A stretch of DNA of 64,000 nucleotides from Azolla caroliniana (GCA_043228905.1 JBHGNT010000002.1:8308001-8372000), one strand, 5' to 3'. Positions 10 through 64,000 are shown, counted from the stretch's first letter. Numbers and translations: made by a program. Notes: a model not told the origin generated them from the letters alone.

Positions 10-4091
<4,082 letters not shown>

Positions 4092-5449
4092 ACCATGTAA
4101 TATTAGTGATCTCTCCTTGTAGTAATAGATTTTTAACTTACATTAAAATTACTAGCTTTATAAGGTCTATACTACTTATTAGTATATACCTTTGATTTTT
4201 GTTTTTCCTACCAAGAAGATAAAAACGAGATGTTAAAAAATGTTAAATACTCGGGAAGGATAAAGTCAGGGACAATTTAATGGGCAAACTGATTGTTGTC
4301 TCCCCCACTTCCTCGATCTTGTTCAAACGTGCATGTATTCGAGAGACCCTTCATGATCCTGACATTATTACGGTTTTCAAATTTGATTGGAACAAGGTGT
4401 GGTGTACACAGTAAATATTTGACCTTGTTATTTAATTCAGAAGTTGTTTCCTAGTTTAAAGTGAGATATGCACAATTAGTTATTTCTAGAAAAAATGAGG
4501 ATTGCCAATTCTTTCCAAGAAAATGGCTTCAATTGCATCTCGGCAACAACGAGCTCTCTAACAACATTTTCATGTTTATTTGTATAATCTGATAAAATAT
4601 CAAACCAACAATTACATTTCCTTTGCAAAAAGTACCCTTCTCCGTGTCCTTCAATTTTATTCAAAACATAGTTCTGCAAGTATTTAGTCTGAAGTTTCCG
4701 AACATAAATACTCTTTGCAAAATTTGATGCAGGAATATCATAGTACTCAGAGAAAATAATTATCATACTGTAAATTGGATGATTGTTGTAAACGATGTGT
4801 TCCATATTGATTCTATGATTGTTTAAAGATTTCAAGATGATACAGAACACCGTAGCTATTGTAAGTTTTTGGAAAACTGAAGTTTTGACAACAAATACAG
4901 TCGTGATGATTTGAGCGGTTCTTCGCCAGAGCCTCAGCTATAGATTTCATCAAAGGAATCTGGCAAGACAAATTCAATCATGATAAATTCTAGCACTCAT
5001 TTTAAACTGCGAGCTAGTATTCATTCTTTTGGGGGGAGTGGGGCTTGTTGGTTTTGCAGTGTTGGAGAATGTTCTTAAAATTTTGGTCAGTATGAATATG
5101 CTATATTTGAGAAGCGAGAGATAATGTTTCCAAATATAGACCCAAGACTATCAAATTTCATGCCAAAATTGGAGTCCTAATAAGCTTTTTGGTCTTGTTT
5201 TGGATACCATTGATTTGCATTTTCTTGTACAAAATGCTTCTCACAAAATGATTTCCATAGAAGAAACCGATTCTTCTAGAGAACAGAAGGAAAAACCTTC
5301 CCCTAACCCTAATCCGATTCAACTCTATGTCGTTGCTTATACCCTTAAAAAGCATGAAACTCTTCATGCCAAGTTGCCCTGAAAGCTTTATTTTGAGTTG
5401 AAATAACTTATTTCTCTCAAGTGATAAATACAGCTCACAGTTACTAGCC

Positions 5450-43424: not shown

Positions 43425-44846
43425 TAGAGGTGTCAAGGCGATTGATTGCAGATGGGTGTACAAAGTAAAGTACAATGTTGACGGCTTCGTCAACAGGTAC
43501 AAGGCCTGACTAGTGGCCAAGGGTACATGTGGCAAGACGAAATAGACTACGACAAAACATTTGTGCTAGTCGCGAAGATGACGATTGTTTGTGTATTGTT
43601 GGATGAAGTAGTGGCGATGGGATGACATCTACATCAGATGGACATGAAGAACACGTTCCTCCAAGGCAACCTTGAGGAACAAGTCTTCATGGTGCAACCT
43701 CCCAGATTTTAGTGTGAGTCAAGAACAAATCGGTATTTTACCGACGGAAGAAGTCCCTTTACGAAATTACACAACACCTGGGTAAGATGCGGTTTTCTTA
43801 GTCAAAGTCAAACTAGTCCTTGTTCATCCGGCAAGGTTGGAATAGGTCGGTTAGTGCTTTGCTATGTGTGGATGACTTGGTCATTGTCGGCGCTGACTTG
43901 GAGGAAATCAGCGAAAAGTCTCACTCGGCGGCATCATTCGTGTTAGACGATTGGCTACCCAAAGTCCAAGGGTCAGAGTCGGAGTCGACAATACTCGGAG
44001 TCGACCAATGTGAATAGTAGTTGGAAGGTCGGAAGGACAAAGACAGAATCTGAATATGAAAAGGATGGAAATTAATATAATGTATTTTGTCAAGTATAAA
44101 ATATAGTAAGTTAGTTAGGAAAATTTTGGTGTAGTTCTTACTGAATAAGACAAATGTAATCTTGGAAGAGAGACTCTTAGATCACCTATAAAAAGGGACC
44201 GACATAACTGTTATTGGATCAGTCTATTTTGAGTCATATAAGTTAGTAGTTAGAGGATCTGTTGTGTCGACTACATTGTGTTGTAAGTTTTTCTAATGGT
44301 CTTTGTGTCGAATGTTCGAATAAGGTCTCTGCTCCACAAGTTGTATTGCATCTAATAGTTGATCATAAGTATATCATAGTAAATAATTTGGGTGAAAGAC
44401 TACCATCGATCAATCCATCTCTTCACCACAATCTTTTGATAGAATGTTCAACCTATTGTGTCTGTCAGCTATAACAGTCGGCTTTCGGTAAGCTAACAAT
44501 TCGAGATGAAGGACTTGGGGGACATTCACTACTTCCTCGAGATTGAAGTGATTTGCACCCTGGAAGGCATATAAGTGTTCAAGCAAATGGAGGAACCTCA
44601 AGTTGAGCTTGAGGGGGAGTGTTGAGAGACAAGCTCAACATGAGACGGATCAATTAAAGCTTGGTAGGCAGTATCGACTGAATAAGCTGAGAGGAAAGTC
44701 AGTTGAGGAAGATCGGCTGCCATAGCTGACAACCAAATCAACGGGGAGCTGACGGACTGACTGTTAGAGGCATACATTCCTATTTTTGTAAATAGGAATA
44801 CTATAGACATTTAGTGTTAGAATGCTATAGACATTCCTATTCACAT
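43425..44846 (+). mobile_element. Ty1/copia family A-like remnant (RT fragment, large deletion, PPT, LTR start at 44620)
   Basis: WVYKVKYNVDG, LCVDDLVI, EMKDLG, then GAGGGGGAG followed by TGTTGAG. Confidence 0.8.
43941..44498 (+). mobile_element. Solo LTR (558 bp)
   Basis: TGTTAG...CTAACA ends, perfect TSD ATTCG (43936-43940, 44499-44503), and ctataaaaagg at ~44186. Confidence 0.88.
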
Positions 44847-45357
44847 TGTCACGATAATCCGCGGGTATGTGTCGAAACGGGCGGGACCATCGAGGTCTCG
44901 GACTAAGGAGCCAGTAAGAGGAAACGAGAGAGAGTGAAAATGATTATCCAGAACGTTTCCGGATAGCTTTTTCAGAACACGAGCAAGGACACACGGGCTT
45001 AGATGCGTATATTGTTGTAGACTAGACGTTAGATACTAGATGAAGAGAATGCGGGCTTAGATGCTCGGGTATACATGAAGGTAAAAGGGGAATAGAGATG
45101 AGAATGTAATAGAAATTAGGTGACACACCGGAAACAGAGAAGACCAGATGCAGCAAGACAAATTGATTAACTAATAGACAAAGAGAGATATAACCAAACT
45201 CGGGCGGCGATAGAGCTTTGAGCCCTCAACACACACACTAGCAAGGCTCTGATTGAAGCACTTGACAAAAGCCTCGCAACACAACAACAGAGACAAGCCT
45301 CTGATCGGGAGCACTCGGTAGAGGCCTCACAACACAACAACAGAGACGGAAAGCAAG

Positions 45358-45547
45358 TGTCATGAACACATGACCATTATGGAGGGTGACTTGAACCTAG
45401 GACCTTGTAATCCATGATTGGAAACCTCAACCATTAAGATAGCTTATTAGAATAAAAACTACTTTTTGTATTACATTGATTATTGTAAAACTCTGAATCA
45501 TGTTCCAAAATGTTCTCGAATGTCCTAGACCATTCTAGGTCTAGAAC
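45358..45547 (+). mobile_element. Truncated LTR (U3) related to the chromovirus LTR, inserted in the D' LTR
   Basis: Starts TGTCATGA and has the same module order as the 48127 LTR (antisense B/A box, AT-rich spacer, degenerate HSE). Followed by a family A-like LTR fragment at ~45548-45640. Confidence 0.65.
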
Positions 45548-48257
45548 TATTGAGAGGATAAGCTCAACTGGATCCGGATCGGTTGAACAAGCCAGATCGG
45601 AGTTCGGAACGAAGAACCGGATCGGTGTCCGCATGGTATCTGGAACTGGCGCCGCTTATCGAATCGTTAGGGTCCACGGCTCCGCATACCTTCAAACTCC
45701 TTTCGACTTGACATTGTTCTCAGCCGACAACGCCGACTATTGTACATCCTCCATTTTAGGAGAACCAAAACCTCCTACTTAGTGTACAAGTGTGGGGTTT
45801 CCGGTGACTGTCCGGACTATGGCAGCCCCACGCCTTGATAGCCATCTTCAAAAATCCTCTCGGGACTCACTGCCAAGAGAGTCTCGGTTCCGTTCATGGT
45901 TCCACTGAACTGTCATAAATTGGACGGAATGTTGTCCATCCTAGCTATTCGCCCTTGCATACGCCGAATCGTTGTCCAACACCTTCATCTCTATTCAAGC
46001 CACCATGATATAAGGTTTGCTGAGTATAATGGGGTGCGATGACGTCTCATGCACGAAGAAATGTTGGTCGATCTTGACATCTCCGACCTTCACCCGAACA
46101 TTCAGGCACGCCCCATGAAGCTCCTCTATCGCGTGGGTCGCCGCGTGTATCTTCCATCCGTGCTTTAGGTTGATTGGCCACTTCCATTTCTTATAGAAAT
46201 CCATGGACATCGAGTTGATCTCCGATCCATGGTCGATCAATGCTACTACCGGCTACCTGATGTCGCTGATCCGAACCGGCATCTCGATTGTCGCTCTTGC
46301 CCAATGCGGCTTGGTGTAGTAGCTATCGAAAAACTCATACTCCACCGCCATTTCATCGATCAATGTCGTCCTTACCTTGACCAGTTTTTCTACCTCTTGC
46401 TCTATCGAGAGTCACTTCCTCTTCACTAGGTTGATGATGCTATCATGGAAATCCTTCTTCGTTATCCCTAATACTTCTCGCAGAGAGAGTTCCACCCAAC
46501 TATCGTGGAAATCCTTCTTCGCTATCCCCAATACTTCTCGCAGAGAGAGTTCCACCCGACTGTCGAGGATCTGCTCTTCTAAAACCTTCCATAGGTCTAT
46601 CGCCATCTCAATTTCCGAGCCCAGTTGGAAGCTAAAAAATTTCTCACTCTCTCCTTTGAGCCGACCATCACTTCTCTTCGGTCCTGAAAAGAATTGCGTG
46701 CGGAAGCAATATAGAAAACTGAACAACAGAAAACGTTGGTTTAATGGAAAGCTTAGGTTTGCACAGTATGCACGGGAGAGACAAAGAGAGAGAGTAAACA
46801 CAGAACTTAATTCAAAAAATAATACTCAATCTATACATAGGATGTGCTCAGTGAGCACTTTTATACAAGCCCTGACTATCAGGCTGACACAAGTACTGAC
46901 AGTACTTGACTGCTCATAAATGAGCCCCGAGTCTTACTCCCAAAACTATTCCTTACGAGGAATATCTTTCTAACGGCCTTTCGGTTTACACACCGATACG
47001 GCCTTCCTACACACCGGTTTGCGTACCGGTTTACGCTTCTCCATTTTACGCACCGGTCTGGCCTAACCGATTGGTCCCAACCGATCCGGTCCTCGGCTTG
47101 CTCAGCCGATCCGGCCGATGTTGAGCTTGTCTCTCAACATTCCCCTTCAAGCTCAACTTGAGGCTCTTCGGGATCTTCGGGATCACCGCTCCAGTTCCTC
47201 CTGGCTCTACGCCTCGCTCGCGCTCCTCGGCATGTTCGACTCCATGCGCTTCGACCCTTCCGGTCAGTACGGCCCTTCACAACTCCCTTGTTGTCGTGGT
47301 GTTGGCGCTTCTCCTGCTGCCTTCTTTTCGGCTTGGCCCTCGGTTGATTCAGTGTATCCGAATCAAACACTCGAACCGACTCGGCTACCTCCGATCGGTT
47401 TTCGCTCTCGTCCGAGTTGGTTGTCTCCAACTCGTCTTCAGTCTTCTCGCACTTGACGGCATCATCTCCCCCATGGTTGGTTGGCTTTGGCTCTTTCTTC
47501 GGGATGCTCCCCTTATGTCCGCTTTCGGACTCTTCTGCGGATCTGCCCTTGGCTTCTTCAGCCGATTGAAATCGAATTCGTCATCCGACTCGGCATCGCG
47601 GTCTTCTCCGCTCCTTTCCTGCTTCCTTCCATGGTCATTCGGGACGTCTCTCCCCCTCAAGTTTGGCACGTCGAGGTGACGCAATCCAAGCGCACCCGAG
47701 AATTGCCGCAACTTGTCCAGACCAAGGGGCTTGGTGAAGATGTCGGCAGTTTGCCGATCCGTCGGAACATACTGAAGTTCGACTTCACCAGAAAGAACAC
47801 GCTCTCGAACAAAATGGTAGTGCACCTCAATGTGTTTGGTCCGTGCGTGGAAAACGGGGTTCTTTGCGAGCTGAATGCTACTGAGGTTGTCGCAGTAGAT
47901 CGTCGTCGGATCGGACATCTCCTCTCGCAGGTCCTTAAGTAGCCACTTCAACCATATGGCTTCGCATGCTGCGACAACCGCTCCTCTATACTCAGCTTCG
48001 GTGCTCGACAGTGCAACTGTTGGCTGCTTCTTACTACTCCACACTATCGCGGCACTCCCAAGAGAGAACGTGTATCCGGACGTGGATCGACGATCGGCGG
48101 CGTTGCCAACCCAATCAGCATCGGTGTGTCATGAGATGGCAAGACTCGAACCCATGACCTTATGGTATATGGGTCGAGCTCTTAACCATCTCACCATCTA
48201 TTGTAATTCATAGAATATTATTTTCATTTATGTTTTATTATAAGAAAGTAATGTATA

Positions 48258-48317
48258 TTCCAGATTTCTCTGGAACATTCTAGAAGCTTCAGGATTATTC
48301 CTGAGAACACTATAAAA
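48258..48317 (+). promoter_or_regulatory. Heat-shock element array plus TATA box in the chromovirus U3 (copy at 53503-53562)
   Basis: Perfect GAAcaTTCtaGAAgcTTC at 48273-48290 with in-register imperfect pentamers on both sides. TATAAAA at 48311. Confidence 0.75.
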
Positions 48318-48566
48318 GAAGGCACTAAGCATTATGTTGAACCAAATTGGTTCAACACCAGTCTTAAGCCTCTTAGTCGATTTGTACTTATCTTTCATAT
48401 AATATAAGAGCTGTTGTCATCATCCTATTTCTCTCTCTCTCTCCTCTTCTCACTTCCTCTCTCTCGGGAATCTTACGCAGTCCCGTCCTCTTAGTACTAA
48501 TAGTACTAATAGTACTACTCTTCTTAGTACTAATTCCATCTCTGTTTTAGTACTATTCCTGACAGT

Positions 48567-48578
48567 TTGAACCAATTT
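48567..48578 (+). promoter_or_regulatory. Self-priming PBS
   Basis: TTGAACCAATTT is the exact reverse complement of AAATTGGTTCAA (48344-48355), 33 nt after the TATA start. There is no TGG tRNA-type PBS. Confidence 0.85.
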
Positions 48579-48633
48579 TTTCCTCTAGCCTACTTGTCAC
48601 TCTCCCTCATCTTCCTACCCTTTCCCCTATACT

Positions 48634-49791
48634 ATGGCTACTGTTAGCGCCCAAGAATACCAATCCGTTTTCTCCGAGCTACAGTGCCTAAAAGAAAAGT
48701 TTGTTGCCTTGGAACAAGAAAACCAACGGCTGATAGGGGATCTGCAACAAATCGCTCTAGAAAAACAACAAACGCAACAACAACATGGGGAGTTAGCGTT
48801 ACGGGTACAACAACTCGAAGCAGCGTTGCAACAACAAGGATCCAGTCCCCAAGGATTTCATAAAGAGCCCAAGATTGGACTTCCTGTGAAATTTGATGGA
48901 ACGCGTTCGCAATTTCGGGGATTCCTTAATCAGGTACGCTTAGTCATCCAGATGCATCCTTCCCGATATCCCACTGATGCATCTCGAGTCGGCCTAATAG
49001 GCACGCTACTTAGCGGCTCAGCCTTGGCATGGTTCGCTCCGCTTCTAGAAAAACAATCGCCCTTGCTTAATAACTTTGAAGATTTTATTGGTGAGTTTAA
49101 AGCCTGCTTTGGAGACACCGACAGCATCAGGACGGCGATCAACAAGATCCGGCGATTGCGTCAAGGCGATCGTCCAGCCTCTGCCTACGCGGCGGATTTC
49201 CGCCTACTTGCTTCAGATATACCCTGGGATGATCAAGCACTAATGGAGCAGTTTCGCTATGGCTTGCGAAACGATGTCAAAGATCTACTTCTAACTTTCC
49301 CCGAAGAACCAAAGTCTCTTACGGAGGCAATCAGTCGAGCAGTTCGATGTGACAACCGCCTTTTTGAACGGCGTTCAGAACGTCAATTACAGATACCACG
49401 CTCTAGGCCAGAGCCCACTTACGCCGCAGTCGCGGCTAAACCGTTTGCACGAGACATACCTCAAGCAAATACTTCGACACCGATGGAGATCGATACCATG
49501 CGTCGACGCGGCCTGTTATCGGAAGAAGAAAAGCAACGACGACGTGCCAATCGATTATGCCTTTATTGCGGTGGACCAGGACATATCGCCATCAATTGTC
49601 CCCATAGGCCAAGAAGACAGGTAAATCAAATTGTCGCCTGTACTAAACCTGAGTCAATTCTTCCCTTCGGAGTGTCTGATAGTAGTAATAGTACTAATAG
49701 AGTGTCAGATAGTATTCATAGTACTAATAGCCCAAGTATCTCAAATAAATTTGAAATCCTTAGTCAATTAGATGAAGAGTTAAACGATTGA
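48634..49791 (+). CDS. gag: Gag (385 aa): coiled coil, capsid, CCHC knuckle
   Basis: EPKIGLPVKFDG, LRQGDRPASAYAADF, PMEID, LCLYCGGPGHIAINC. Confidence 0.95.
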   Translation: MATVSAQEYQSVFSELQCLKEKFVALEQENQRLIGDLQQIALEKQQTQQQHGELALRVQQLEAALQQQGSSPQGFHKEPKIGLPVKFDGTRSQFRGFLNQVRLVIQMHPSRYPTDASRVGLIGTLLSGSALAWFAPLLEKQSPLLNNFEDFIGEFKACFGDTDSIRTAINKIRRLRQGDRPASAYAADFRLLASDIPWDDQALMEQFRYGLRNDVKDLLLTFPEEPKSLTEAISRAVRCDNRLFERRSERQLQIPRSRPEPTYAAVAAKPFARDIPQANTSTPMEIDTMRRRGLLSEEEKQRRRANRLCLYCGGPGHIAINCPHRPRRQVNQIVACTKPESILPFGVSDSSNSTNRVSDSIHSTNSPSISNKFEILSQLDEELND

Positions 49792-49834
49792 GTCCAGCCA
49801 AAATAGGAGCCATTTGGTTGGACAGCAGCCCTAG
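49779..49834 (+). promoter_or_regulatory. -1 ribosomal frameshift signal
   Basis: In-frame G TTA AAC, a 6-nt spacer, then an 11-bp stem 49792-49802/49813-49823 with one G:U pair. Confidence 0.75.
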
Positions 49835-52800
49835 ATCTGTACAGCCCATTAGTGGTTCCATTCCTTCCAAGCAAGTTAGCAATGTGTTCCTAGCCCAAGT
49901 CATTGTTAGTACTAAAAGTACTCCCCCAGTACCCGTCCTAGCACTTTTAGATTCCGGAGCTAATTCCTGTTTCATGGATCGAAATTTTGCCCAAGCTTCT
50001 CAGATATCCTTAAGAAAACTTCCTTGTCCCGCATCTGTAGTGGTCATTGATGGTCGTCCCATTGCTTCCGGGAATATTGTAGAAGAATCAGAACCCATTC
50101 AAGTTGTCCTAGGTAGTTTTGTGTGTATAATATCATTTAATATAATTAGTAGTCCAGAGCATCCCATTGTCCTAGGATTACCTTGGCTTGAGTTACATAA
50201 TCCAGCCATAGATTGGAGAACAAGAGAAGTCCGATATCGACCACCCCAAGAATCAACTCGCCGAGTTTCGACCATTTCACTCCATCAACTACGCGAAGAA
50301 GGACCCAAGGAGGCAATGTTCCTATTTTCCATATCAGTACATCCTTCCAACACTATTAAGAAGGACTCCTCAGTACAACTTCCGGCAAAATATCATCCTT
50401 ATGCCGATGTATTTGACAAGGTAAAAGCCGGTACCCTTCCTCATCACCGTCCCTATGACTGTCCCATCGATTTACAACCAGGAACCGAGCCACCATGGGG
50501 ACCAATTTACAACCTGTCACCCACCGAGTTAGAAGTCCTTCGAGCCTACATAGAGGAGAACTTGGCAAGCGGGTTCATCCGTCATTCGAAATCTCCGGCC
50601 GGTGCACCCATCTTCTTTGTCAAGAAGAAAGATGGCTCACTTCGTCTTGTCGTTGATTACCGCGGATTAAATAAAGTCACCATCCGGAATAGGTATGCAC
50701 TTCCTCTTATATCAAGTCTTTTAGAGCGAGTTAATGGTGCCAAGTTTTTTACTAAAATCGACCTACGCGGAGCGTATAATCTCGTGCGGATCCGATCGGG
50801 AGATGAGTGGAAGACCGCTTTTCGCACGCGGTATGGGCATTTTGAGTATACTGTTATGCCGTTTGGCCTAACCAATGCACCCGCAGTCTTCCAACACATG
50901 GCAAATGATATATTCAGAGACCTCTTGGATATCTGTTTGATCATTTATCTGGATGATCTGTTGATTTATTCGAAGACCCAGGAAGAGCACGACTCTCATG
51001 TACTATTAGTACTAAAGCGACTCCGCGAGAATGGTCTTTATGCCAAGCTAGAAAAATGTAGCTTTGACTGCAAGCAAGTGGAATTTCTAGGCTACGTCAT
51101 CTCCTCAAAGGGCATCGCCATGGATCCAGCTAAGATCCAAACTGTACTAGAGTGGCAAATTCCACGGTCGGTACGAGATGTACAATGTTTTCTAGGTTTT
51201 GCTAACTTCTACCGTAAGTTTATACAGGATTACTCGAAGATTATTTTACCTCTCACACAACTTACGAAGAAGGGCCAAGCATTTCTTTGGTCCATTGAAG
51301 CAGATATGGCTTTTCGGCATCTTAAGAAAGCCTTTACATCAGCACCGATTCTAGCTCATGTGGATACAAGCAAACCATTCATCATGGAGGCCGACGCATC
51401 AGATTTCGCCCTCGGTAGCATCCTTTCTCAACAAGGTGATAAAGAAGAGTTGCATCCGGTGGCTTTTCATTCGCGCAAATTCGATGTCGCAGAAATCAAC
51501 TACGAAATACATGACAAGGAGTTATTAGCCATCGTGGATTCATTTGTACAATGGCGGCATTTCTTAGAGGGCTCTCCACATCAGGTCATTGTCTTCAGCG
51601 ATCATAAAAATCTTGCTTATTTTCAGAACGCTCGCGTACTAAATCGACGGCAAGCTCGGTGGGCGCAATTCCTCACGCGTTTCGACTTCAAAATCACATA
51701 TCGACCGGGGAAGCAGCAAGGAAAAGCAGATGCACTATCACGACGTTCATATCTTGCACCTCGTCCTGGTGAAGCAACATTTGATAATCAAAAGCAAGTA
51801 ATCTTAGGACCAACACGATTGCACACGACGCGGATTTTTCACACCCCGATGGATTCACGGATTACCGATGACATACGTGCAACCTTGAAGACGGATAGTT
51901 TTGCTCAAGACATCCTGGCGCACATTGATACTTCTCGGGCATCCTGTTCTCAGTCTCAACAACCAGGTATTGACTACCGACAATTCGAATATCATGATGG
52001 TTTGTTATTCTTTAAAAAGCGCGTATATGTCCCCGATTGCTCCTGTCGCCTTCAAATTGTCCAACATTGTCATGACACCCATACGGCGGGACATTTCGGT
52101 AGTACTAAGACGTTGGAGCTAGTGCAGCGATCTTTTTGGTGGCCCCACATGCGCCGTTTTGTCGACGACTACGTTCGGACCTGTGATGCTTGCTGCCGAG
52201 CAAAGATGCCACGACACCATCCATATGGCTTGTTGGAACCTTTACCAATTCCAAGTAAGCCATGGCAGTCTATTTGTCTTGATTTTATCACAGATCTGCC
52301 GGTCTCGAAAGGGTTCGATGCTATCCTAACCGTCGTCGATCGATATACGAAGATGGCACATTTTGTGCCATGTACTAAAGCCATCACTAGCGAGGAAACC
52401 GCCGCTCTTGTTATGCGTGAGGTTTTTCGGCATCATGGCCTCCCAGACAGTATTATCAGTGACCGAGGCCCGCAATTTGTCTCCAAATTTTGGCAGCATC
52501 TCTTCAAGATGCTCAAGGTCTCCTGCAACCTCTCCTCCGGCTACCATCCTCAAACCGACGGACAGGCGGAACGAACAAACCAAACGCTGGAGCAATATCT
52601 CCGGTGTTTCCTGAGTTATCAACAGGACGATTGGGCCGAGATTCTCCACTTTGCGGAGTTTGCGTATAATAATGCTATTCACTCCTCGACTCGGGTCTCC
52701 CCATTTTTCGCTTATACCGGTTTCCATCCTCGCTGGTCGGTGATCGACACTCCGGAGCTACCTACCAACCCTCGTGCCGAGGATCATTTGGAGAGGCTAC

Positions 52801-53360
52801 GCAAGATCCAGATGGATCTCTCTACTCACCTTCGTCATGCTCAACACACACAGAAGACTTATGCGGATCGTCATCGGATTCCCTCCTCTTTTGCCATCGG
52901 AGATCGAGTATGGCTCTTACGTCGTCACATCAAGACTACTCGACCGTGCGACAAGTTGGATTATCGACGACTCGGTCCTTTCCGTATTACGGGGAAGATT
53001 AATGATGTCACCTTCCGCCTTGATCTCCCTCCGCAGCTTCAGATACATCCGGTTTTCCATTGTTCTCTTCTTGAACCTTATAAAGCAAACACCATTCCCG
53101 ATCGTGTGACACCACCGCCGCCCCCACTGGAGTTGGACGCCGGCCCGGAGTATGAAGTTGCTGCCATCCTCGATTCCAAACTTGTTCGCAACAAACTCTA
53201 TTACTTGGTCGATTGGCTCGGTTATAGTCCGAGTGAACGTACTTGGGAATCCGTCGAGAATGTTGCCAATGCACAAGATCTTCTTGCTGATTTCCACCGA
53301 AAGTATCCGGACAAACCCGGTCCGCAAGTAGCGCTGACTCGTTCCACTCGTCGTCTTTAA
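49788..53360 (+). CDS. pol: Pol (PR-RT-RNase H-INT-chromodomain), -1 frame relative to gag
   Basis: LLDSGA, YLDDLLI, DASDF, HDKELLAI, HHCC zinc finger, D,D-35-E integrase region, LGPF, and the C-terminal chromodomain YEVAAILD...YLVDWLGY...TWE. Confidence 0.97.
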   Translation: MSPAKIGAIWLDSSPRSVQPISGSIPSKQVSNVFLAQVIVSTKSTPPVPVLALLDSGANSCFMDRNFAQASQISLRKLPCPASVVVIDGRPIASGNIVEESEPIQVVLGSFVCIISFNIISSPEHPIVLGLPWLELHNPAIDWRTREVRYRPPQESTRRVSTISLHQLREEGPKEAMFLFSISVHPSNTIKKDSSVQLPAKYHPYADVFDKVKAGTLPHHRPYDCPIDLQPGTEPPWGPIYNLSPTELEVLRAYIEENLASGFIRHSKSPAGAPIFFVKKKDGSLRLVVDYRGLNKVTIRNRYALPLISSLLERVNGAKFFTKIDLRGAYNLVRIRSGDEWKTAFRTRYGHFEYTVMPFGLTNAPAVFQHMANDIFRDLLDICLIIYLDDLLIYSKTQEEHDSHVLLVLKRLRENGLYAKLEKCSFDCKQVEFLGYVISSKGIAMDPAKIQTVLEWQIPRSVRDVQCFLGFANFYRKFIQDYSKIILPLTQLTKKGQAFLWSIEADMAFRHLKKAFTSAPILAHVDTSKPFIMEADASDFALGSILSQQGDKEELHPVAFHSRKFDVAEINYEIHDKELLAIVDSFVQWRHFLEGSPHQVIVFSDHKNLAYFQNARVLNRRQARWAQFLTRFDFKITYRPGKQQGKADALSRRSYLAPRPGEATFDNQKQVILGPTRLHTTRIFHTPMDSRITDDIRATLKTDSFAQDILAHIDTSRASCSQSQQPGIDYRQFEYHDGLLFFKKRVYVPDCSCRLQIVQHCHDTHTAGHFGSTKTLELVQRSFWWPHMRRFVDDYVRTCDACCRAKMPRHHPYGLLEPLPIPSKPWQSICLDFITDLPVSKGFDAILTVVDRYTKMAHFVPCTKAITSEETAALVMREVFRHHGLPDSIISDRGPQFVSKFWQHLFKMLKVSCNLSSGYHPQTDGQAERTNQTLEQYLRCFLSYQQDDWAEILHFAEFAYNNAIHSSTRVSPFFAYTGFHPRWSVIDTPELPTNPRAEDHLERLRKIQMDLSTHLRHAQHTQKTYADRHRIPSSFAIGDRVWLLRRHIKTTRPCDKLDYRRLGPFRITGKINDVTFRLDLPPQLQIHPVFHCSLLEPYKANTIPDRVTPPPPPLELDAGPEYEVAAILDSKLVRNKLYYLVDWLGYSPSERTWESVENVANAQDLLADFHRKYPDKPGPQVALTRSTRRL

Positions 53361-56300
53361 GGGGGAGATAGTGTCATGAGATGGCAAGACTCGAACCCAT
53401 GACCTTATGGTATATGGGTCGAGCTCTTAACCATCTCACCATCTATTGTAATTCATAGAATATTATTTTCATTTATGTTTTATTATAAGAAAGTAATGTA
53501 TATTCCAGATTTCTCTGGAACATTCTAGAAGCTTCAGGATTATTCCTGAGAACACTATAAAAGAAGGCACTAAGCATTATGTTGAACCAAATTGGTTCAA
53601 CACCAGTCTTAAGCCTCTTAGTCGATTTGTACTTATCTTTCATATAATATAAGAGCTGTTGTCATCATCCTATTTCTCTCTCTCTCTCCTCTTCTCACTT
53701 CCTCTCTCTCGGGAATCTTACGCAGTCCCGTCCTCTTAGTACTAATAGTACTAATAGTACTACTCTTCTTAGTACTAATTCCATCTCTGTTTTAGTACTA
53801 TTCCTGACACGGTGTAGCCGACCAACTGCGAGGTTGTACCAGTCCAATATAGCAGTCCCCGGTCCATAGTGCCGCTTACGTACCGCAGTACGCGTTGCGC
53901 ACACTGAAGGTGCTCCTTGGTAGGCCGCGCCATAAATTGACTAATCACCCCGACCGGATAACTGAGATCGGGTCGGGTGATTGTCAAGTAAATAAGGCTT
54001 CCAAAAATTTGTCGGAACCTCGTCTGGTCACACACCTTTCCAGAATTGGGGCGTATCTTGACGGTTCTATCAAGAGGAGTTGAGACGGACTTACAGTCTG
54101 CCATCCCGAATTTGAAGAGCATATACAACGCATAATGGCATTGGCTGATCAATATGCCTTCAGGGGTATGGATCACTTCGATCCCGAGGAAGTAATGAAG
54201 ATCCCCCAGATCCTTCATGTCGAACGATACCGCAAGCTAGAGCTTCACGCGGTTGATTTCACCTAGGTCGGTGCCAGTGATGACTAAGTCATCAACATAG
54301 AGTAAAATACTGACCGGCCCGAGTCGACCTTTCCGAACGAACAATGAGGAATCTGATTTTGACGTCGCAAAGCCCATCCGACGCAGTCGATGCGTGATCT
54401 TTGCGTTCCAGGCACGCGAGGCTTGCTTCAGTCTGTAAAGGGACTTCTTTAATCGGCACACTGCCGACGTGTTTGTTCTGGAGTGAAATCCGGGGGGTTG
54501 TACCATGTACACTTGTTCCTCAAGCTCACCTTCCAAGAACGCATTCTTTACATCCATCTTATGTAAGTGCCACCCCTTGGCCGCGGCTACCACGAGCAAA
54601 ACACGGGCGGTCGTCATCTTCGCGACCGGAGCAAACGTCTCAAGTTGAGCTTGTTCCGGCTCCGGTTACGCTTGTTGGGGAAGGGAAGTCGGTGTTGCTT
54701 CCCAAGCTGGCAGGCTTCACAAATTTGTGCCTTCCGGCCACTAAATTTGGGCAATCCGAACACCACTTGTTTCGATTGCAGGTCTTGAAGCTGCGGGTAG
54801 TTGACATGGCCTATCCGCTTGTGCCATAAGTCGATGTACGACTCGACTTTTTGTCCCTTCGCGAACATTGCGGTGCCACCGTTAGTAGAGTTGAGGATGA
54901 ATATCCTCCCATCTCTGCGCCCTTGCGCAATAATGCGGCCTTCTTCCTCAATGAAGCACCTGAGGTGTGTAAACCGAACCTGCATCCCCTAGTCGACGGT
55001 GATGGTTGGGACATGTAACACGTTCATAAGTTTCCCTTTCTGCCCGACATGGTTCAAGGTAACTTCATCGACATTCGCGATCTGATGCGGAGTGTCGTCT
55101 CCGGTTGCGACTACTCCTGGTTGCGTCGGTTTCTCAAGATATGACAACCACTCCTCGTGGCACGTAATGTGGTTTCACACGCCAGAGTCGACGTACCACA
55201 CCTCGTCCGATTTCGGGGCGGACTGCTTCATCGAGTTTGCTTCGTGTCTCGTCACGAAGACTGACCCTTTTTTGGCTTCTCCGGATTCTTCGGCGTAGTG
55301 CGATCGTTGCCGGTTTCCTTTGTCGGTATGTCTGGAACCAGATCCGGAACCAGTCCTCTCTAACTCAGCACGCTTTTTCCAGCACTCGCTCTCCTTGTGG
55401 CCTTTCTTGCCAAAATACCAACATTCCACGGCGGATTTCCCTTGCCGTTTCTCGCCGCCTCAACTCCCCCTTTTTCCAGAGGGTTCGGAGTTGCTGTCGG
55501 CATCACTTCGGTGCCTTCTTCCTTGATCCCGTCGGCCGCCTCCATTGCGTACTGATTCGCCTCGTCCGCCACGACCACGGGGCCTCTCTCCCTCTGTGTA
55601 CAACATCTTGCTGTCGGCATGCGTGCTTGTCGACGCACCCGCGTGGTTCTCCTCTATATGGAGCATCGACTGTAAGTCGAAAAACAACGACGTATTCTCC
55701 CGGGTACACACAATAGTTCGGAACACCCCGAACTTCGACGCCAAACCCTCGAGACAGACCTGGACCATCTCGCTTTCCTTGATGTTCACATCGATGGAAG
55801 CTAAGGAGTCGCATATGTCCCTAATCCTTGAGGTATAGTCAGCCACCGACAAATTGCGTTGCCGTAGGTTGCTCAATTCGTGTCGGAGTTGAAGCTTCCT
55901 AGCTGTGGTGCTCGCGGCGAAAATCTTCTTCAGATTTTCCCACGCACCCTTCGGCGTTTTTGCATCCCGAACGTAGCTTAACAGTTGTTCGCCCACACAA
56001 GACGCGAAACAGTACAGCACTCTGCTCGCCGATTGTTCCCACGTCGGGAAGTCTTTGTGTGTCAAATCGGGTGTTGTGTCATTTGCTCCATCGACATAGC
56101 TCCAGTAACCATGTCCGAGCAGGTACTGGTGCATCTTGTAAGACCAAGACGCGTAGTTGTTTCTGTCGAGCTTCTCTGTCGGAAGCAAGCTAGCCATTCC
56201 TCTGTCCATCGGTTTTCTTGTTCTTCTTCGTTGGTTTTCCCTTCAAGCAAAGTCGACTGCAGAGGTTCTCAACCCTCACACTCTGATACCATGAAAAGAA

Positions 56301-57537
56301 TTGCGTGCGGAAGCAATATAGAAAACTAAACAACAGAAAACGCAGGTTTAATGGAAAGCTTAGGTTTGCATAGTACGCATGGGAGAGACAAAGAGAGAGA
56401 GTAAACACAGAACTTAATTCAAAAAATAATACTCAATCTGTACATAGGATGTGCTCAGTGAGCACTTTTATGCAAGCCTTGACAATCGGGCTGACACAAG
56501 TACTGACAGTACTTGACTGCTCATAAATGAGCCTTGACTCTTACTCCCAAAACTATTCCATACGAGGAATATCTTTCAAACGGCCTTTCGGTTTACGCAC
56601 CGATACGGCCTTCCTACTCACCGGTTTGCATACCGGTTTACGCATCCGTTTTACGCACCGGTCTGGCCTAACCGATCGGTCCCAACCGATCTGGTCCTCA
56701 ACTTGCTCAACCGATCCGGCCGATGTTGATCTTGTCTCTCAACAGGTCCGCCCCGGGTGTCGTATCTCCCCAAAGGGTCTGCCCCTTCAGCCTTCTTGAC
56801 CCGCTTGTCTTCAACCAGAACCTTGTAGTTCTAGCATGCAGCTTCTACAAAGCCGGTTTTCTCCATAGATCGCTACATCCAGTGACCTCCTGGACCCGCC
56901 TCTCTGCGCAATCCGCTTCCTCCTTTTTCAACTTCTTCTCGGAGAAGCTTTCGAGCACCACCGGCCAAAATACGGCATCGCTTCTGGAACTGACCCTTTT
57001 TTCCCATCTGACTTGGATGCCAGCTAATGCCGAGTAGTGAATAGCCCCGAAGTTTCGAGCCACGGCTTACTCCATCAACCTTTTCATTCCTCCTTGATCG
57101 GTGTTCATCTCAAGGGGTTTCCAGGTCTCACTCTCATGTACTTGTTCATTCCATAGGTACACAACACTACTCTTGAGTGCATTAGCGAAGTCAGCACACT
57201 CTCTCCAGATGTGGCCGACAGCGTCGCACCACATGCATCTATGGTCAATCGGTATGCTCCAATCGCGCGATTGACTACCACCTTCCCTTCGGGCCTAAGC
57301 AATCTAGATGTCTCATACCAACTTGGTAAGTTCTTCTAGAGATGAAACTCTTGTTGATCCACCGACAACGTTCGTCGGTGTCGGCCCCGACTCGAATCTC
57401 CGACTCATCTCGCCTAGCCAAGTCAATACTTCTCCGGTCATCCTCCCGATAATTAGGCCTACAGACGATGTGCCCTCGCTATTCCACGCTTGCCGTTTAT
57501 CAAAACAGCTACAACCCCCTTTTACCATGGTTCAATC

Positions 57538-60500
57538 TGTTACAAAGGCGCTCCGACTCTTCTTTGTGCGCGGCAGATCGTGATGAGTTGTATCGTTTAA
57601 TGTGCTCAAGACAGAAAAGGAAGGGGGAAGGAAACTTACCTCTGTAGCAAAACCAAAAGCTTCTTCTATTTCATTACACGCAGAGCTCAACTCGTTCTCG
57701 TCAGTTTTCTGTTCTTCTCTACTCTCACTACTCTTCTATATCTCACTCTCTTACTTTTTAGCTAAGTTATAAGTGACTTATATATGCAGCTAATTAGCTG
57801 TGAGTAGCTAAATAGTTGTGCATAGCTAAATAGTTATTTCACCTTTATGTCCACTAGTAGCTAATTTCCTAATAGCTACTATAGAAGATCTCACTTACCA
57901 ATATGCATCACATACCTTTGTTGAGCTTGTTTCTCAACACTCCCCCCCAAGCTCAACTTATCCTTTCTTGGGATCATCTTCAATCTTTTTTTCTTCATGC
58001 TTTTCAGCTATCATACCGATGGTTATAACTCCCATCATGTCTCTAAACTGTGTATGTTTTTCCATGCTCAATCCCTTCGTAAGAATATCAGCCACTTGCT
58101 GATTTGTACTTACATACAACAGATCCACTTCTCCATCAATCACTTATTCTCTAACAAAGTGATAATGCACTTCAATGTGCTTTGTTCCTGCATGGAACAC
58201 TCGGTTTTTTGCTAGTTGAATGATGCTCATATTGTCACACCAAATTGTGACTACACCATCTATATACTCTGCCAAATCATAAAGCAATCTTCTTATCCAT
58301 ACCTCTTCACATGTGGCTATTGCAACTCCTCTATATTCAGCTTCAGTACTTGATAATGCAACAGTAGGTTCTTTCTTGCTACTCCATGAAATAATTGCAC
58401 TTCCCAATGTAAACATATATCCACTTGTGAATCTTCTATCAGTTTGGCTTCCAACCCAATCAACATCTGTATATCCTTCCAGCTTTATGTCCGGATTAGC
58501 CCTATAAAACAGTCCATAGTTCTAAGTAGTTTTTACATACCTCAAGATTCTTCTAATGCAGTCCAAGTGTGGCTTTGTTGGCTGTTGCATAAACTGGCTG
58601 ACTAATCCAACAACATAACTCAAATCAGGTCTTGTTATAGTCAAATATATGAGGCTTCCCACCATAAACCTGTACATGTTTACATCTTCTATTTTGGCTC
58701 CCAAATCAGCCCTCAATTTGCAGTTCTTATCCAGTGCTACATCAATAGGTTTGCATCCAAGCATACCATACTTCTTCAACATAGTCGTTGCATACTATTT
58801 TTGCAACATATATATACCACTTTCAGATCTGATCATCTCAATGCCAAGAAAGTATCTCAGCTCTCCCAAATCCTTCATATGAAATTGCATTTCAACATTT
58901 TTTTTCTACTTCGTTATTTCATCCATAAAATCCCCTCCAATGATTAATTCATCAACATATATCAAGATAACAACAATGAAATCATTTATCTTCTTTACAT
59001 ACAATGATGGATCAACTTTTGATATTTTGAAGGCAATCTTTTTCAGAGATTCTGAAAGTTCCTTATGACATGCACTCGGTGCTTGTTTCAATCCATAGAG
59101 AGCCTTTTTCAGCCTACATACATATTCTTGATGCTTCTTATCTTCAAAACCTAGTGGTTGACACATATACACTTCTTCTTCCAAGTTACCATGTAAAAAA
59201 GCATTTTTTACATCCATATTGTGCAGAACCCATCTTTTGGCTACACTCATAGCAAGTAGTGTTCTCAAGGTTGCCATCTTTGCAACCGGTGCAAATGTTT
59301 CATCATAATCAATACCTTGCATCTGGGCACATCCCTTTGCAACAAGTCTTGCTTTATGTCCACTAACATTTCCATTTGAAGCATGCTTTGTTTTGTAGAT
59401 CCATTTGCAACCCACAACATTTTTTTCTTTCGGTAACTTCACCAAATCCCATGTTTTGTTTTTAGCCAATGTATCTATTTCTTCTTGTATTACATTCACC
59501 CATTTCTTATCAGATTTTGCTTCATCAAAATTATTTGGATTAGGGATTTGTACCACTTTAGACATGTATGCATAATGCATAGCCATATATGTGTCATAAT
59601 GAAATCTTTCAACAGTCTTTTTCTCTCCATCTGATCTTCTCAGTTTCTAATTTGCATCTTTCATTGCCTTTTCCATACTAGGGATTTTCAAGGCTCCTAT
59701 ACCAAGCTCATCATCCAATGATGTATCTGACTCTACATCTTCCATGTTTCTAGGCCCATCATCAAGCATTTCTTATTCTGGCATCTTCAATTTTCCCTTT
59801 TTATCATCATATTTTTTATGTCCTACATATTTTCCACTCTGTGCATTTGAATCAAATCTACTACCATAGTTTTTTGATGGTCCCGTACATTCTATTGATG
59901 TTGAATTTTTCTATCTAACATTGTTTCCATCTTTGTGGTTATCTCTTACATTTTCAGATTTTTCTTTGTCTTCATTTTCACAGTCTTCATTAGTTTCTAC
60001 ATTCTCTTTTGGGATGTACCAGCTGCTCAACTCATCAAATATTACATGCTGACTTGCCACAATCTTTTTTGTCAAAGGGTTATAGCATCTATACCCTTTT
60101 TGCTCCTCTAAATATCCAACAATAACACATTATTTAGCTTTTGGATCAAGCTTACTTCTTACTTCAGTAGGTACATGGACATAGGCAAGGCATCCAAACA
60201 CTTTTAAGCCTCCTAAACTAGGTTTCCTTCCATAGAAACATTCTTCAGGAGTTACTTCATGTACTCCATATGTTATACATCTATTTAGAATAAAGTTTGT
60301 TGTGTTTACAACTTTTGCCCAGTAATACAATGGCATATTTTTTTTAGTCATCATGGCTCTTGCTATGTTCACCAGAGTTCTATTTTTTCTCTCAGCAACT
60401 CCATTTTGCTGTGGAGCATACTTACATGTAAATTGTCTCCTTATTCCTTGATTACATAGAAAATTAGAAAATTCATTTGAGAAGTATTCTCGTCCTCCAT

Positions 60501-62711
60501 TAGATCTTAAACATTTTATTCTAGTCCTAGCCTGCTTTTCTACCATGCATTTAAACTTACAAAAGCAATCAAATACTTCACTTTTTTCTTTCATGAAGTA
60601 AACCCATGTTTTCCTTGAGCAATCATCAATAAAGGTTACATAGAACCTGCATCCACCAATTGAGACATTTTTTGTTGGTCCTCATACATCTGTATGTACC
60701 AAATCCAACAAATTTTTGCTTACATATCTTTCATGAGGGAAAGGTAACCCGTTTTGCTTTCCATATTGGCATGCTTCACATATTTTGCTCATCTCACAGT
60801 CTTTCAACTTGGGCAGTCCAACCACTATATTTTTCCTCAACATATTTTTCAATGTTTGCATACTTATGTGACCGATTCTTTTATGCCACATTTCCGCATT
60901 TGAGATTACACTCATTCCTTCTGCAAACATGGTTGTAATCTTTTTAGGCATATCCACATCTAACGCAAACATTCTTCCTTGACGTTTTCCTTTTGCAATC
61001 AGTTTTCCCTGTTTCTCTATAAAGCACCCACTTTGCTTAAACTTAACTCGCATTCCTTGCTCTACTATCTATCCAACAGAAATCAGAGTTTTTGCAAGGT
61101 TTGGTACATGTATCACATTCAGCATATACTTTGTTTTCCCTTTTTCTTCCCACAATGGGATATCTCCAACATGCTCGATTGTGTGAGTAGTATTATCACC
61201 TGTCTATACATAACCAGGAATCTCTAGTTCTCTTAGACTTTCAAACCAACTTGCATGTCTAGTCATATGGTTAGATGCCCCAGAATCTACATACCACATA
61301 TAATCTTCATTGCATCTTTGTGAACATTCAGCCATTGTTGTTGTTTCATGTTGCATCACAAATGCACAATCTTTATCACTGTCTTCACTAGTTGAAGCAT
61401 AATTATTTTGTTGTCTCTTCCCTCTTTTTTCATCATTTTGCTTTTTATAGCATTCAGCCTGTGTATGGCCTGGTTTTCTACAATACCAACAACCATCATC
61501 ATTCAAATAAGTTTGCTTACCTCTTCCTCGGCCTCTTCCAGCACTATTGTAGAGGGCTTGCCCCTCAATCTCAGAGATTCCTTTGTTTACATCATCCATC
61601 TTATTTCTTTCTTCCACTACAAGCATTGAAACTAGATCTGGAAAATTTGGGATGTTATCCCTTGTGAGAATAGATGTTTTGAACCTTTTATATTGAGGTC
61701 CTAAGCCTCTTAAGCATATTTCCACCTTATCATCATCTTCTACCTTCACATTACTAGAAGCAAGTGACTCACATATGCTCTTTATTTTCAGAGCATACTC
61801 ATTAACTGACATCTTACCTTTTTCCAAGGTATTTAGCTCAGTCTTCAACTCAAGTTTTCTAGCCTTTGTGTTTACTGCAAACAGTTTTACCAAACTGTCC
61901 CAAGCTTCTTTTGGAAGTAGAGCATCTTGTATGTGTCCAAGCATCAAATCTGAGATGCTAAGTGACAACCAATGCAATACTTTCCTTGCTCCTTGATTCC
62001 ATTCCTTAAATGCTTTAATCTATGTAGCAGTTGCATTTTCCTGAGGGATCACTGGAGCCTCTTCTAGGTCTCCTTCAATGTAGTCCCAGTATCCTTTTCC
62101 CATCAAGAAATTTGTTATTCTAAATTTCCACGCAAGGAAATTGTTTTTATCCAACTTTTCTGCGACTATTTGGCTTCCATTCTCAGCAGCCATTCTCTCT
62201 TTTAATTAGGGCTTTTGCTACGATTAACTTCACAGACAACTCTCTGATTCAGATCAGCAACCAGAACCAAGCTTCTCATATTTGTACTGCTCTAATCTTC
62301 TTTACGAGCAACTCTACTCTTATACCATGTTACGAAGGTGCTCCGGCTCTTATTTGTGCGCATCAGATCGTGATGGGTTGGATCGTTTAATGTGCTCAAG
62401 ACAGAAAAGGAAGGGGGAAGGAGACTTACCTCTGTAGCAAAACCAAAAGCTTCTTCTATTTCATTACACACAGAGCTCAACTCGCTCTCGTCAGTTTTTT
62501 GTTCTTCTCTACTCTCACTACTCTTCTATATCTCACTCTCTTACTTTTTACCTAAGTTATAAGTGACTTACATATGCAGCTAATTAGTTGTGACTAGCTA
62601 AATAGTTGATTCATCTTTATGTCCACTAGTAGCTAATTTTCTAATAGCTACTATAGAATATCTCACTTACCAATATACATCACATACCTTTGTTGAGCTT
62701 GTTTCTCAACA
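57538..62711 (-). mobile_element. Full-length AT-rich Ty1/copia (family E), LTRs 57538-57939 and 62328-62711, several stops
   Basis: TSD CAATC/CAGTC. PBS TGGTATAAGAG at 62317-62327 (minus). Motifs CWYCRKPGHTQAEC, WYVDSGASNHM, QQNGVAERKNR, LIYVDELII. PPT GGGGGGGAG. Confidence 0.95.
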
Positions 62712-63271
62712 CAGTCGATCGTGAGTCTATCATCTGTCTCCAATAGGAGACCTAACTTTTCCCAATCAAGTGGGTCGACCGACTTGATAAATAGCAGGAC
62801 CTTGCTCGTATCGAGCACGGTTCGGCTGAATGTTGAAAGGCGCGCAAATCACTTCTCAAACTTCTGGAGAAGCACCAATGTGTTCCGGCCTTTGTCAAGG
62901 AGCTCAACCCACTCCCTAAAGTCCCTCTTCGACAACCGGAGCAAGTTGTCGCAACCTTATTTTTCGAGGAGTCGTCCCTTGAACTCTAACCAAGTCTGAC
63001 AGTCGTTTTCGACTTCGAGCACTTCCATGTGGATGCTTGGGGTTACAACCCGTGGGAATGTAGACAGTTATCTATCCTTTGGGATGTCTCTCATTAGCAT
63101 TTCGGCCTTGTAGGCCTCTAGGTAGTTTGTTACATCCTTTCCATTAAATCATCCTATCGTGCCAACTATCATCTCTATGGCCTGTCGAGACCACTCGCAC
63201 TCTCCCAAGCATTCACCGTCATTGCTTCTGCTAGTTCACTTCCCCTCATTTTAGATTCATTTGCTGCCCCT

Positions 63272-63289
63272 TTCACGTCGGGTTCACAA
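63272..63289 (-). promoter_or_regulatory. PBS complementary to the tRNA-Trp 3' end (element D')
   Basis: Plus strand TTCACGTCGGGTTCACAA versus the plant tRNA-Trp(CCA) 3' end TTCACGTCGGGTTCACCA as I recall it (17/18). It lies 3 nt from the LTR edge at 63293. Confidence 0.75.
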
Positions 63290-64000
63290 AGATGTTATGG
63301 TAATCCACAGGTATGTGTCGAAACAGGCGGGATCACCGGGGTCTCAGACTAAGTAGTCGGTAAGAGGAAACGAGAGAGAGTGAAAATGAATATCCAGAAT
63401 GTTTCCAGATAGCTTTGCCGAAACACAGGTAAGGACACGTGACCGATCCGGAGATGTCCACCGGATGCCGGATGGTTAGCACACGGGCTTAGATGCGTAT
63501 ATTGTTCCCGACTAGATACCAAATACCAGATGAAGAACATGCATGCTCAGACACTCGGGTATACACGAAGGTAAAAGGGGAACAAAGATGAGAATGTAAT
63601 AGAAATTAGGAAACGGATAGGAAAAAGAGAAGACCAAATGCAGCAAGACAAATCGATTAACTAACAAAGAAAGAAAGATACAACCAGACTCGGTTGGTGA
63701 TAGAGCTTCGAGCCCTTGACACACACACCTTGCAAACACCAGCAAGCCTCTGATTGGGAGCACTCGGGCTTCTAGACCGAATAGAAGCCTCGCAGCACAA
63801 CATTAGAGACGGGAACAAGAAGCGAACTATTGATTCTGAAATCCGGCAAAACTTCCTCCTCCCCACGATCGATCCCTTACAAGAGTTTAAACCTCCCCTT
63901 TTGATAGAAATAGTGCTCGGCCACAACCAAGCTTCAAACACACGATGGAAGAAACAAACAAACAAGAACCAGGTAGATTTATACACTTACATCGAAATGA

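Follow-up and report, generated by a model that had tools for sequence, protein, structure and literature searches.

The element and its setting

The window, i.e. the whole 64,000-nt stretch of Azolla caroliniana DNA that was analysed, contains an intact Ty3/gypsy element of 5.7 kb in which gag and pol are open. The finding described here lies in its 5' LTR. The main features of the element are the following.

48122..48126 (+) and 53810-53814: left and right copies of the target-site duplication CGGTG
48127..48564 (+): 5' LTR, 438 bp, TG...CA, with no difference from the 3' LTR
48273..48290 (no strand assigned): four alternating GAA/TTC units, heat-shock-element-like
48311..48317 (+): TATA box, likely Pol II promoter
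48344..48356 (+): likely self-primer at the RNA 5' end, complementary to the primer-binding site
48565..48578 (+): self-priming primer-binding site (PBS)
48589..49791 (+): gag reading frame (stop to stop), with capsid and zinc knuckle
49776..53360 (+): pol reading frame, with protease, reverse transcriptase, RNase H, integrase, SH3 and chromodomain
53359..53371 (+): polypurine tract
53372..53809 (+): 3' LTR, 438 bp

The order of domains, from protease through reverse transcriptase, RNase H and integrase to the chromodomain, is that of a chromovirus of the Tcn1 clade. The chromodomain belongs to group I and has the three aromatic cage residues (Y, W and Y), as read by eye from an alignment, with positions taken from the available text of PMC3350952. 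The PBS complements a stretch of the LTR's own R region some 30 nt past the TATA box, a self-priming design known from Tcn1 and from Tf1/Sushi elements (PMC6317226, available part). By domain order, group I chromodomain and self-priming the element appears Tcn1-like, a class set by these features, and the range reported for the clade makes a non-seed land plant the likely host. Self-primer and PBS covary between families (window, L008, L010 and L009; L numbers denote loci fetched for comparison), the self-primer cores lying at 48344-48356 in the window (PBS at 48565-48578), 4310-4320 in L008 and 1370-1380 in L010. In the branch of families described below the self-primer core GGTTCAAC resembles the core of a B box on the sense strand, and that of the sister locus L009 differs.

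The GAA/TTC units resemble a heat-shock element. Such arrays stand just upstream of the TATA box, with three pairs in this LTR and nine in L005 (window 48273-48290 and 45513-45546; L005 2740-2820), and their sequence suggests that these LTRs might be heat-inducible. In L007 and L010, CATG-rich repeats take their place.

The element is nested inside copia-like sequence in a repeat-dense window. Several nested LTR elements lie at 44590-47180 and 54000-64000. A copia-like family has LTRs near 46685-47139 and 56292-56744. Another family has LTR-like copies at 44847-45357 and from 63293, and is interrupted by the LTR fragment that we call site 2 below.

An antisense tRNA-type module at the U3 edge

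At the outer edge of U3, on the strand opposite to that of the element, we find the two internal promoter boxes of a tRNA gene and, between them, the word AGGTC. The module occurs in both LTRs of the element (the 5' copy is site 1) and in the LTR fragment to its left (site 2).

48143..48196 (−): putative Pol III module of tRNA origin, spanning A box to B box, antisense at the edge of U3 (site 1)
48186..48196 (−): A box, tRNA positions 8-19 (site 1), with G at position 14 where many family members have A
48156..48160 (−): AGGTC, tRNA variable-loop positions 44-48 (site 1)
48143..48151 (−): B box, tRNA positions 53-61 (site 1), ending 16 nt from the LTR tip
48204..48253 (−): AT-rich block (86% AT) on the upstream side of the module, where TFIIIB is predicted to sit, a role suggested by the available text of PMC3082873
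53388..53441 (−): second module copy, in the 3' LTR, 5245 bases beyond site 1 and directed towards the polypurine tract and pol
45358..45548 (+): truncated LTR of a sister family, L005/L006 type (site 2)
45388..45441 (−): module in this sister-family fragment
45431-45441, 45401-45405 and 45388-45396 (−): A box, AGGTC and B box of site 2

The initial annotation had placed both motif sets on the minus strand and a further copy in the 3' LTR, as is confirmed here. The 27 nt that it counted between TGGTT and AAGGTC are indeed equal at both sites, measured from start to start, the gap being 22 nt. It had also described a diverged LTR at 45358. This is LTR sequence with the module, but merely the first ~190 bases of a sister-family LTR: its local alignment score is 208 with the 3' LTR of L005 and 117 with site 1, and the sequence behind it resembles the LTR of a copia family.

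The pattern TGGTT-N19-26-AGGTC-N4-GTTCRA occurs three times in the window, always at these LTR edges, whereas 100 shuffles give an expectation of 0.01; it was derived from these same sites, and the independent test is the scoring of a tRNA position profile. This profile was built from 259 phage tRNAs, 71 that matched the module search pattern having been removed beforehand, and the tRNA set itself came from a scan of viral contigs with that pattern (110 matches, 89 of them in real tRNAs according to ARAGORN). Seven modules score 18.8-30.5 bits, all in antisense, real tRNAs having a median of 24. Any module's score is reached by 0-3 of 7996 background windows, and the result held when the pattern-matching tRNAs were taken out of the profile. 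The geometry is also that of tRNAs. From GG19 to G53 the seven modules measure 34, 36, 34, 33, 34, 33 and 34 nt, i.e. 33-34 nt in six of seven, a spacing found in 203 of 266 unselected phage tRNAs. AGGTC precedes G53 by 4 bases, as in class I tRNAs, and is the commonest variable-loop word among the 266 phage tRNAs.

A tRNA gene is not what we see. ARAGORN finds no tRNA gene in the window, Rfam RF00005 gives no tRNA match at site 1, and the L008 module reaches 15.8 bits on this model against a cut-off of 29. The earlier statement that the cloverleaf stems are lost applies to the acceptor stem, which has disappeared (1-4 of 7 pairs across the seven modules), and goes too far for the others: in some modules the T and D stems are partly kept, with 4 of 5 T-stem pairs in four of the seven and 3 of 4 D-stem pairs in four of the seven (tRNA register, raw counts, G-U included). 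The A box is degenerate in its 5' half, departs from the tRNA consensus at position 10 or 14 in five of the seven modules, and is weak in L010. With the boxes conserved (see below) and neither program reporting a tRNA at site 1, the view that promoter boxes rather than a tRNA are retained stands. Judged by its sequence, the module is derived from a tRNA and is not a tRNA gene.

The 50 nt upstream of the module are 80-88% AT in all seven cases, and no 50-mer exceeds 72% AT in the first 200 nt of seven module-less relatives. Plant tRNA genes have AT-rich, TATA-bearing upstream regions, near −35, where TFIIIB binds (PMC3082873, available text). The plant CAA motif is absent at −7 to −3 from the seven modules, and CAA is found at +1 to +3 in only two of them. 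Throughout the branch U3 is ordered as LTR tip, a tail of 16-49 nt, B box, AGGTC and A box (all antisense), AT block, a family-specific enhancer-like block, TATA box and self-primer. The module of a 5' LTR lies between flanking DNA and the enhancer/TATA region, head-to-head with the Pol II promoter.

One branch of five families

An integrase-chromodomain alignment gave 162 fetched loci, the metagenome part being the best 80 from 4 of 64 parts. Six have the module at the U3 edge in antisense (L005, L006, L007, L008, L010 and L019), and this placement holds for all seven LTR sequences compared. They represent five families when site 1 and L019 are counted once and site 2, L005 and L006 are counted once (L006 is a near-copy of L005). 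The best of 67 other LTR starts of at least 80 bases scores 17.8 bits (L034) and the next 10.8, so that none reaches the scores of the modules; the 76 LTR starts were called by an automatic rule and some are surely wrong. A looser B-box scan behind 141 loci yielded no second module-bearing group, and most sampled relatives are without the module.

In a quick integrase tree of 331 columns and 66 rows (the query and 65 loci that match over 230 residues with at least 44% identity; L019 and site 2 left out), the six module-bearing rows form one side of a branch with an SH-aLRT of 95, which implies one change. The sister group, L009 and five others, lacks the module. The LTR of L009 is short (271 bp) and its enhancer-like repeats begin at the tip, hence module and AT block look like an addition. 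Sister families without the module are abundant, and it is therefore not required. The one-off SINE insertion considered in the initial annotation does not account for the module, which marks a whole branch and is common to five families; moreover, between the B box and the LTR tip there are only 16-49 nt, as opposed to a SINE body and tail. The query family is itself abundant in four organisms (2780-5131 contigs per run). The module-bearing contigs and L009 may share their host lineage with the window, because their accessions are of one series.

Selection on the boxes

Between the five families only 0.22-0.50 of the fourfold-degenerate sites are identical (81-113 sites per pair). In a plain, unanchored MAFFT alignment with one row per family, identity reaches 0.92 in TGGTT, 0.84-0.92 in AGGTC and 0.80 in the B box, against 0.40-0.42 in the spacer, 0.45-0.49 in the tail and 0.36-0.43 upstream. 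The box words match the LTR tip (0.92) in this respect; identity over the full A box is just 0.55-0.61. The conservation that had been proposed from two LTRs hence extends to five families, in which conservation of the boxes far exceeds that of the U3 around them, and this difference from flanks and fourfold sites puts the boxes under selection. G53-T54-T55 and A58 are invariant across modules. Within the query family, the best 40 of 87 variants (thousands of contigs from four organisms) include none in the B box, AGGTC or TGG, and six elsewhere in the first 70 bp. A variant at 53435, at ~40-60% of depth, restores the canonical A14. That selection keeps a tRNA-type Pol III promoter, and not a tRNA, is well supported by these comparisons of sequences. 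Part of the conservation of AGGTC may come from pairing with the LTR tip.

Terminators, folds and the LTR tip

Behind the B box, the first T4 is met after 12, 19, 52, 453, 1027 and 1369 nt in six 3'-LTR contexts, and only two of these have a T-run terminator within 20 nt. They are L008 (12 nt) and L007 (19 nt), where T4 falls inside the LTR as in tRNA genes; 1369 nt is the value for site 1.

48129..48196 (no strand assigned): long hairpin over the module, in the site-1 family only, with an inverted near-copy of the B box at 48169-48178

The site-1 module folds as one hairpin of ~68 nt (z −6.7 on the minus strand and −6.4 on the plus strand) because of this inverted near-copy, and there is no T run at its base; the initial annotation did not mention this fold. 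L019 has a weaker hairpin (z −2.4), and in the other five modules the minus strand forms no stronger a fold than shuffled sequence does (z −1.2 to 0.1). A conserved hairpin over the whole module was considered and rejected, the fold not being common to the families. Where the A box and tail of site 1 depart from the majority of the family (variants 53380, 53435 and 53436), the change lengthens the hairpin, which gives the impression that one arm is a copy of its partner.

A smaller structure involves the tip itself. In five of the seven module LTRs, 6-8 nt of the LTR tip recur in inverted form no more than 60 nt away; the copy overlaps AGGTC in site 1, L007 and L008, and in L008 tip and partner covary. 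An inverted tip copy within 70 nt is found at 16 of 53 LTR starts against 6.5 expected, e.g. at those of L007, L008, L009, L010 and L127, and in the window at 48127-48160 and 45358-45375. A hairpin at the U3 tip may be general to this group.

What the module might do

We propose that a tRNA gene, or the head of a tRNA-derived SINE, was captured once in an ancestor of the branch and came to lie between the tip of the LTR and its enhancer block. Together, the two boxes and AGGTC would recruit TFIIIC, and from their sequence we consider that the modules probably do bind it. TFIIIB would then be seated on the adjacent AT-rich block. The bound complex might act as a barrier or nucleosome excluder, so that the adjacent Pol II promoter would stay open in the silenced chromatin where the element likely inserts. 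We infer this heterochromatin targeting from the nested position in repeat-dense sequence and from the chromodomain of group I, a type that directs MAGGY to heterochromatin (PMC3350952, available text). Any Pol III transcript started in the 5' LTR module would run out into the flank. A TFIIIC-bound DNA element is the simplest reading because what is kept are the positions read by TFIIIC, their spacing, their orientation and the AT block, and no RNA end or shape. We give roughly an even chance to the complete proposal, that the antisense Pol III module of this branch is a chromatin element bound by TFIIIC and TFIIIB which protects the Pol II promoter. That the benefit lies in chromatin rather than in an RNA product is, taken separately, about evenly poised. 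The wider claim that heterochromatin-homing autonomous chromoviruses possess a tDNA-type barrier of their own, in the form of a captured Pol III promoter arranged head-to-head with that for Pol II and kept across families with near-saturated synonymous sites, is one we advance tentatively and with some doubt.

TFIIIC sites and tRNA genes are said to organise and insulate chromatin (PMC11346459). The barrier activity of tRNA genes is established in yeasts and animals, and the available text of this review mentions a challenge to their role in 3D organisation; in the literature accessible to us we found no plant evidence for such activity. It also speaks against a barrier that Pol III, with no terminator behind its promoter in the 3' LTR, would produce RNA antisense to pol, and this should invite silencing. 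A role of the module as a landing pad for other insertions gains no support: in the single case available, at site 2, the insertion upstream of the module is about 100 nt away from the predicted +1, as opposed to 22 or 73 nt.

This very RNA might be the selected product, serving copy-number control or as a source of small RNAs when transcribed antisense to pol from the 3' LTR, or else acting as a short hairpin RNA. The promoter would suit such a role, with both A and B boxes and an AT-rich upstream block. Strong folding is seen at site 1 (z −6.7) and weaker folding in L019 (z −2.4), L007 and L008 have T4 at 19 and 12 nt past the B box, inside the LTR, and foamy viruses produce Pol III miRNAs from U3 (PMC3993851, available text). 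Yet the distance to T4 is scattered between 12 and 1369 nt in the six 3'-LTR contexts, five of seven modules fold no better than shuffles on the minus strand, and the base of the site-1 hairpin is without a T run. The absence of a terminator or fold common to the families weakens the antisense-RNA option, which the initial annotation had offered as its alternative, and makes a DNA-bound chromatin element likelier than an RNA product; selection for the RNA seems to us unlikely. The plus strand might also matter as RNA, by annealing to the D and T loops of a host tRNA or to the element's own primer, and so bridge the RNA ends and aid packaging or strand transfer. Orientation and place fit, the sequence being tRNA-complementary and at the 3' end of the genomic RNA; Ty1 and Ty3 have sites complementary to the T and D arms (PMC4974528), and HIV-1 has an embedded tRNA-Lys3-like sequence in U3-R (PMC6468702), to judge from the available parts of both papers. 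The self-primer core GGTTCAAC is itself T-loop-like. But these elements prime themselves, and the covariation of primer and PBS implies that no tRNA primer is needed. The conserved patches cover 5-9 nt over the loops, whereas the intervening stems, needed for annealing, have diverged, and tRNA D and T loops contain modified bases. The AT-rich block would be left unexplained, and we find such annealing quite improbable.

Alternatively, a captured tRNA relic could have been reused as plus-strand sites for Pol II factors together with a small hairpin made with the LTR tip. The inverted tip copies described above fit this: they occur within 60 nt in five of seven module LTRs, overlap AGGTC in three, change together with the tip in L008, and are in excess among LTR starts (16 of 53 against 6.5 expected). 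AACCA and TGAC are also cores of plant MYB and WRKY sites. Such reuse does not explain the tRNA spacing of all three words or the invariant G53-T54-T55 and A58, and the TGAC core is missing at site 2 and L005; we regard it as no less improbable than annealing. There remains the idea that an old insertion, of a tRNA or a SINE, persists here as a neutral remnant. It would agree with the degenerate A box and with sister families devoid of the module, and LTRs do acquire small-RNA sequence, many in Repbase having tRNA-like parts (PMC10886601, available text). It is largely refuted by box identities of 0.80-0.92 against 0.22-0.50 at synonymous sites and 0.36-0.49 in the neighbouring sequence, and we give it hardly any credence.

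Relation to known systems

The closest known elements, as far as the accessible literature goes, are the Helenus TRIMs and TRIMp3 (Kojima 2024, PMC10886601, available text), which the initial annotation did not name. Their LTRs contain tRNA-derived sequence in which A and B boxes are kept and the cloverleaf has decayed, and, compared by eye, the Helenus LTRs also keep an AGGTC-like word before the B box. They differ in being non-coding, tRNA-primed elements of 311-1263 bp, whereas the element studied here is autonomous, self-priming and 5.7 kb long. In the Helenus LTRs compared the module is in sense, often with a T run behind it, so that Pol III could copy the element; here it is antisense in seven of seven. 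Hence what the two have in common is boxes in the LTR, while a short non-coding body, a promoter on the element's own strand and a tRNA-complementary PBS are lacking here. The same paper argues that autonomous partners need Pol II and are unlikely to have such LTR sequence in common with TRIMs. It also states that not a few Repbase LTRs have tRNA-like parts, only TRIMs having been followed up there, and unanalysed cases may be on file in Repbase. Cassandra, widespread in land plants, and Ajax likewise have in their LTRs a Pol III promoter of small-RNA origin, but it derives from 5S, the elements are non-autonomous, and the promoter transcribes the element itself (PMC10886601, available text).

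Among autonomous retroelements, foamy viruses have A/B-box Pol III units in U3, the miRNA cassettes, beside the Pol II promoter (Kincaid et al. 2014, PMC3993851, available text). In these the hairpin RNA and the terminator are functional, whereas neither is common to the families here. The bipartite PBS of Ty3 (PMC4974528) and the tRNA-Lys3-like U3-R of HIV-1 (PMC6468702) resemble the module, in the available accounts, in that a sequence complementary to arms of a tRNA stands close to the 3' end of the genomic RNA; the tRNA in question also primes those elements, whereas the module clade self-primes and keeps only the promoter-box positions. With the Tcn1 clade our element shares domain order, group I chromodomain, self-priming and LTRs of ~440 bp (PMC2864245, PMC6317226 and PMC3350952), and the available text of these papers mentions no Pol III module ("polymerase III" and "B-box" occur 0 times in that of PMC2864245). 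The role proposed here is that of tDNA/TFIIIC (ETC) elements, which bear boxes, bind TFIIIC and organise or insulate chromatin, but these are host loci of yeasts and animals (PMC11346459, available text). In the literature accessible to us, which covers subscription journals and Repbase entries thinly, we found neither an ETC element carried by an autonomous LTR element nor an antisense tRNA-type module in the LTRs of autonomous chromoviruses.

If the barrier reading is true, every insertion and every solo LTR plants a TFIIIC site, and a family of such high copy number would scatter these sites through a plant genome. Moving with the element and conserved at the outer end of its LTR, a site of this kind would then be a concrete answer to the question of how chromodomain retrotransposons stay expressed in heterochromatin. 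The capture of Pol III promoters would also extend from non-autonomous TRIMs to autonomous elements, contrary to the expectation in the available text of PMC10886601.

Additional observations

L006 contains a second tRNA-like A/B module (~1000-1065, minus strand, 24.9 bits), antisense in the protease-RT linker of pol, and a weaker one in its flank (6343, 19.8 bits). Both may be due to chance, and the pol-linker module is not seen in the element of the window. The 79 loci L084-L162 are chromovirus integrase-chromodomain sequences on contigs filed as bacterial or archaeal genomes, and are likely eukaryotic contamination of those bins.
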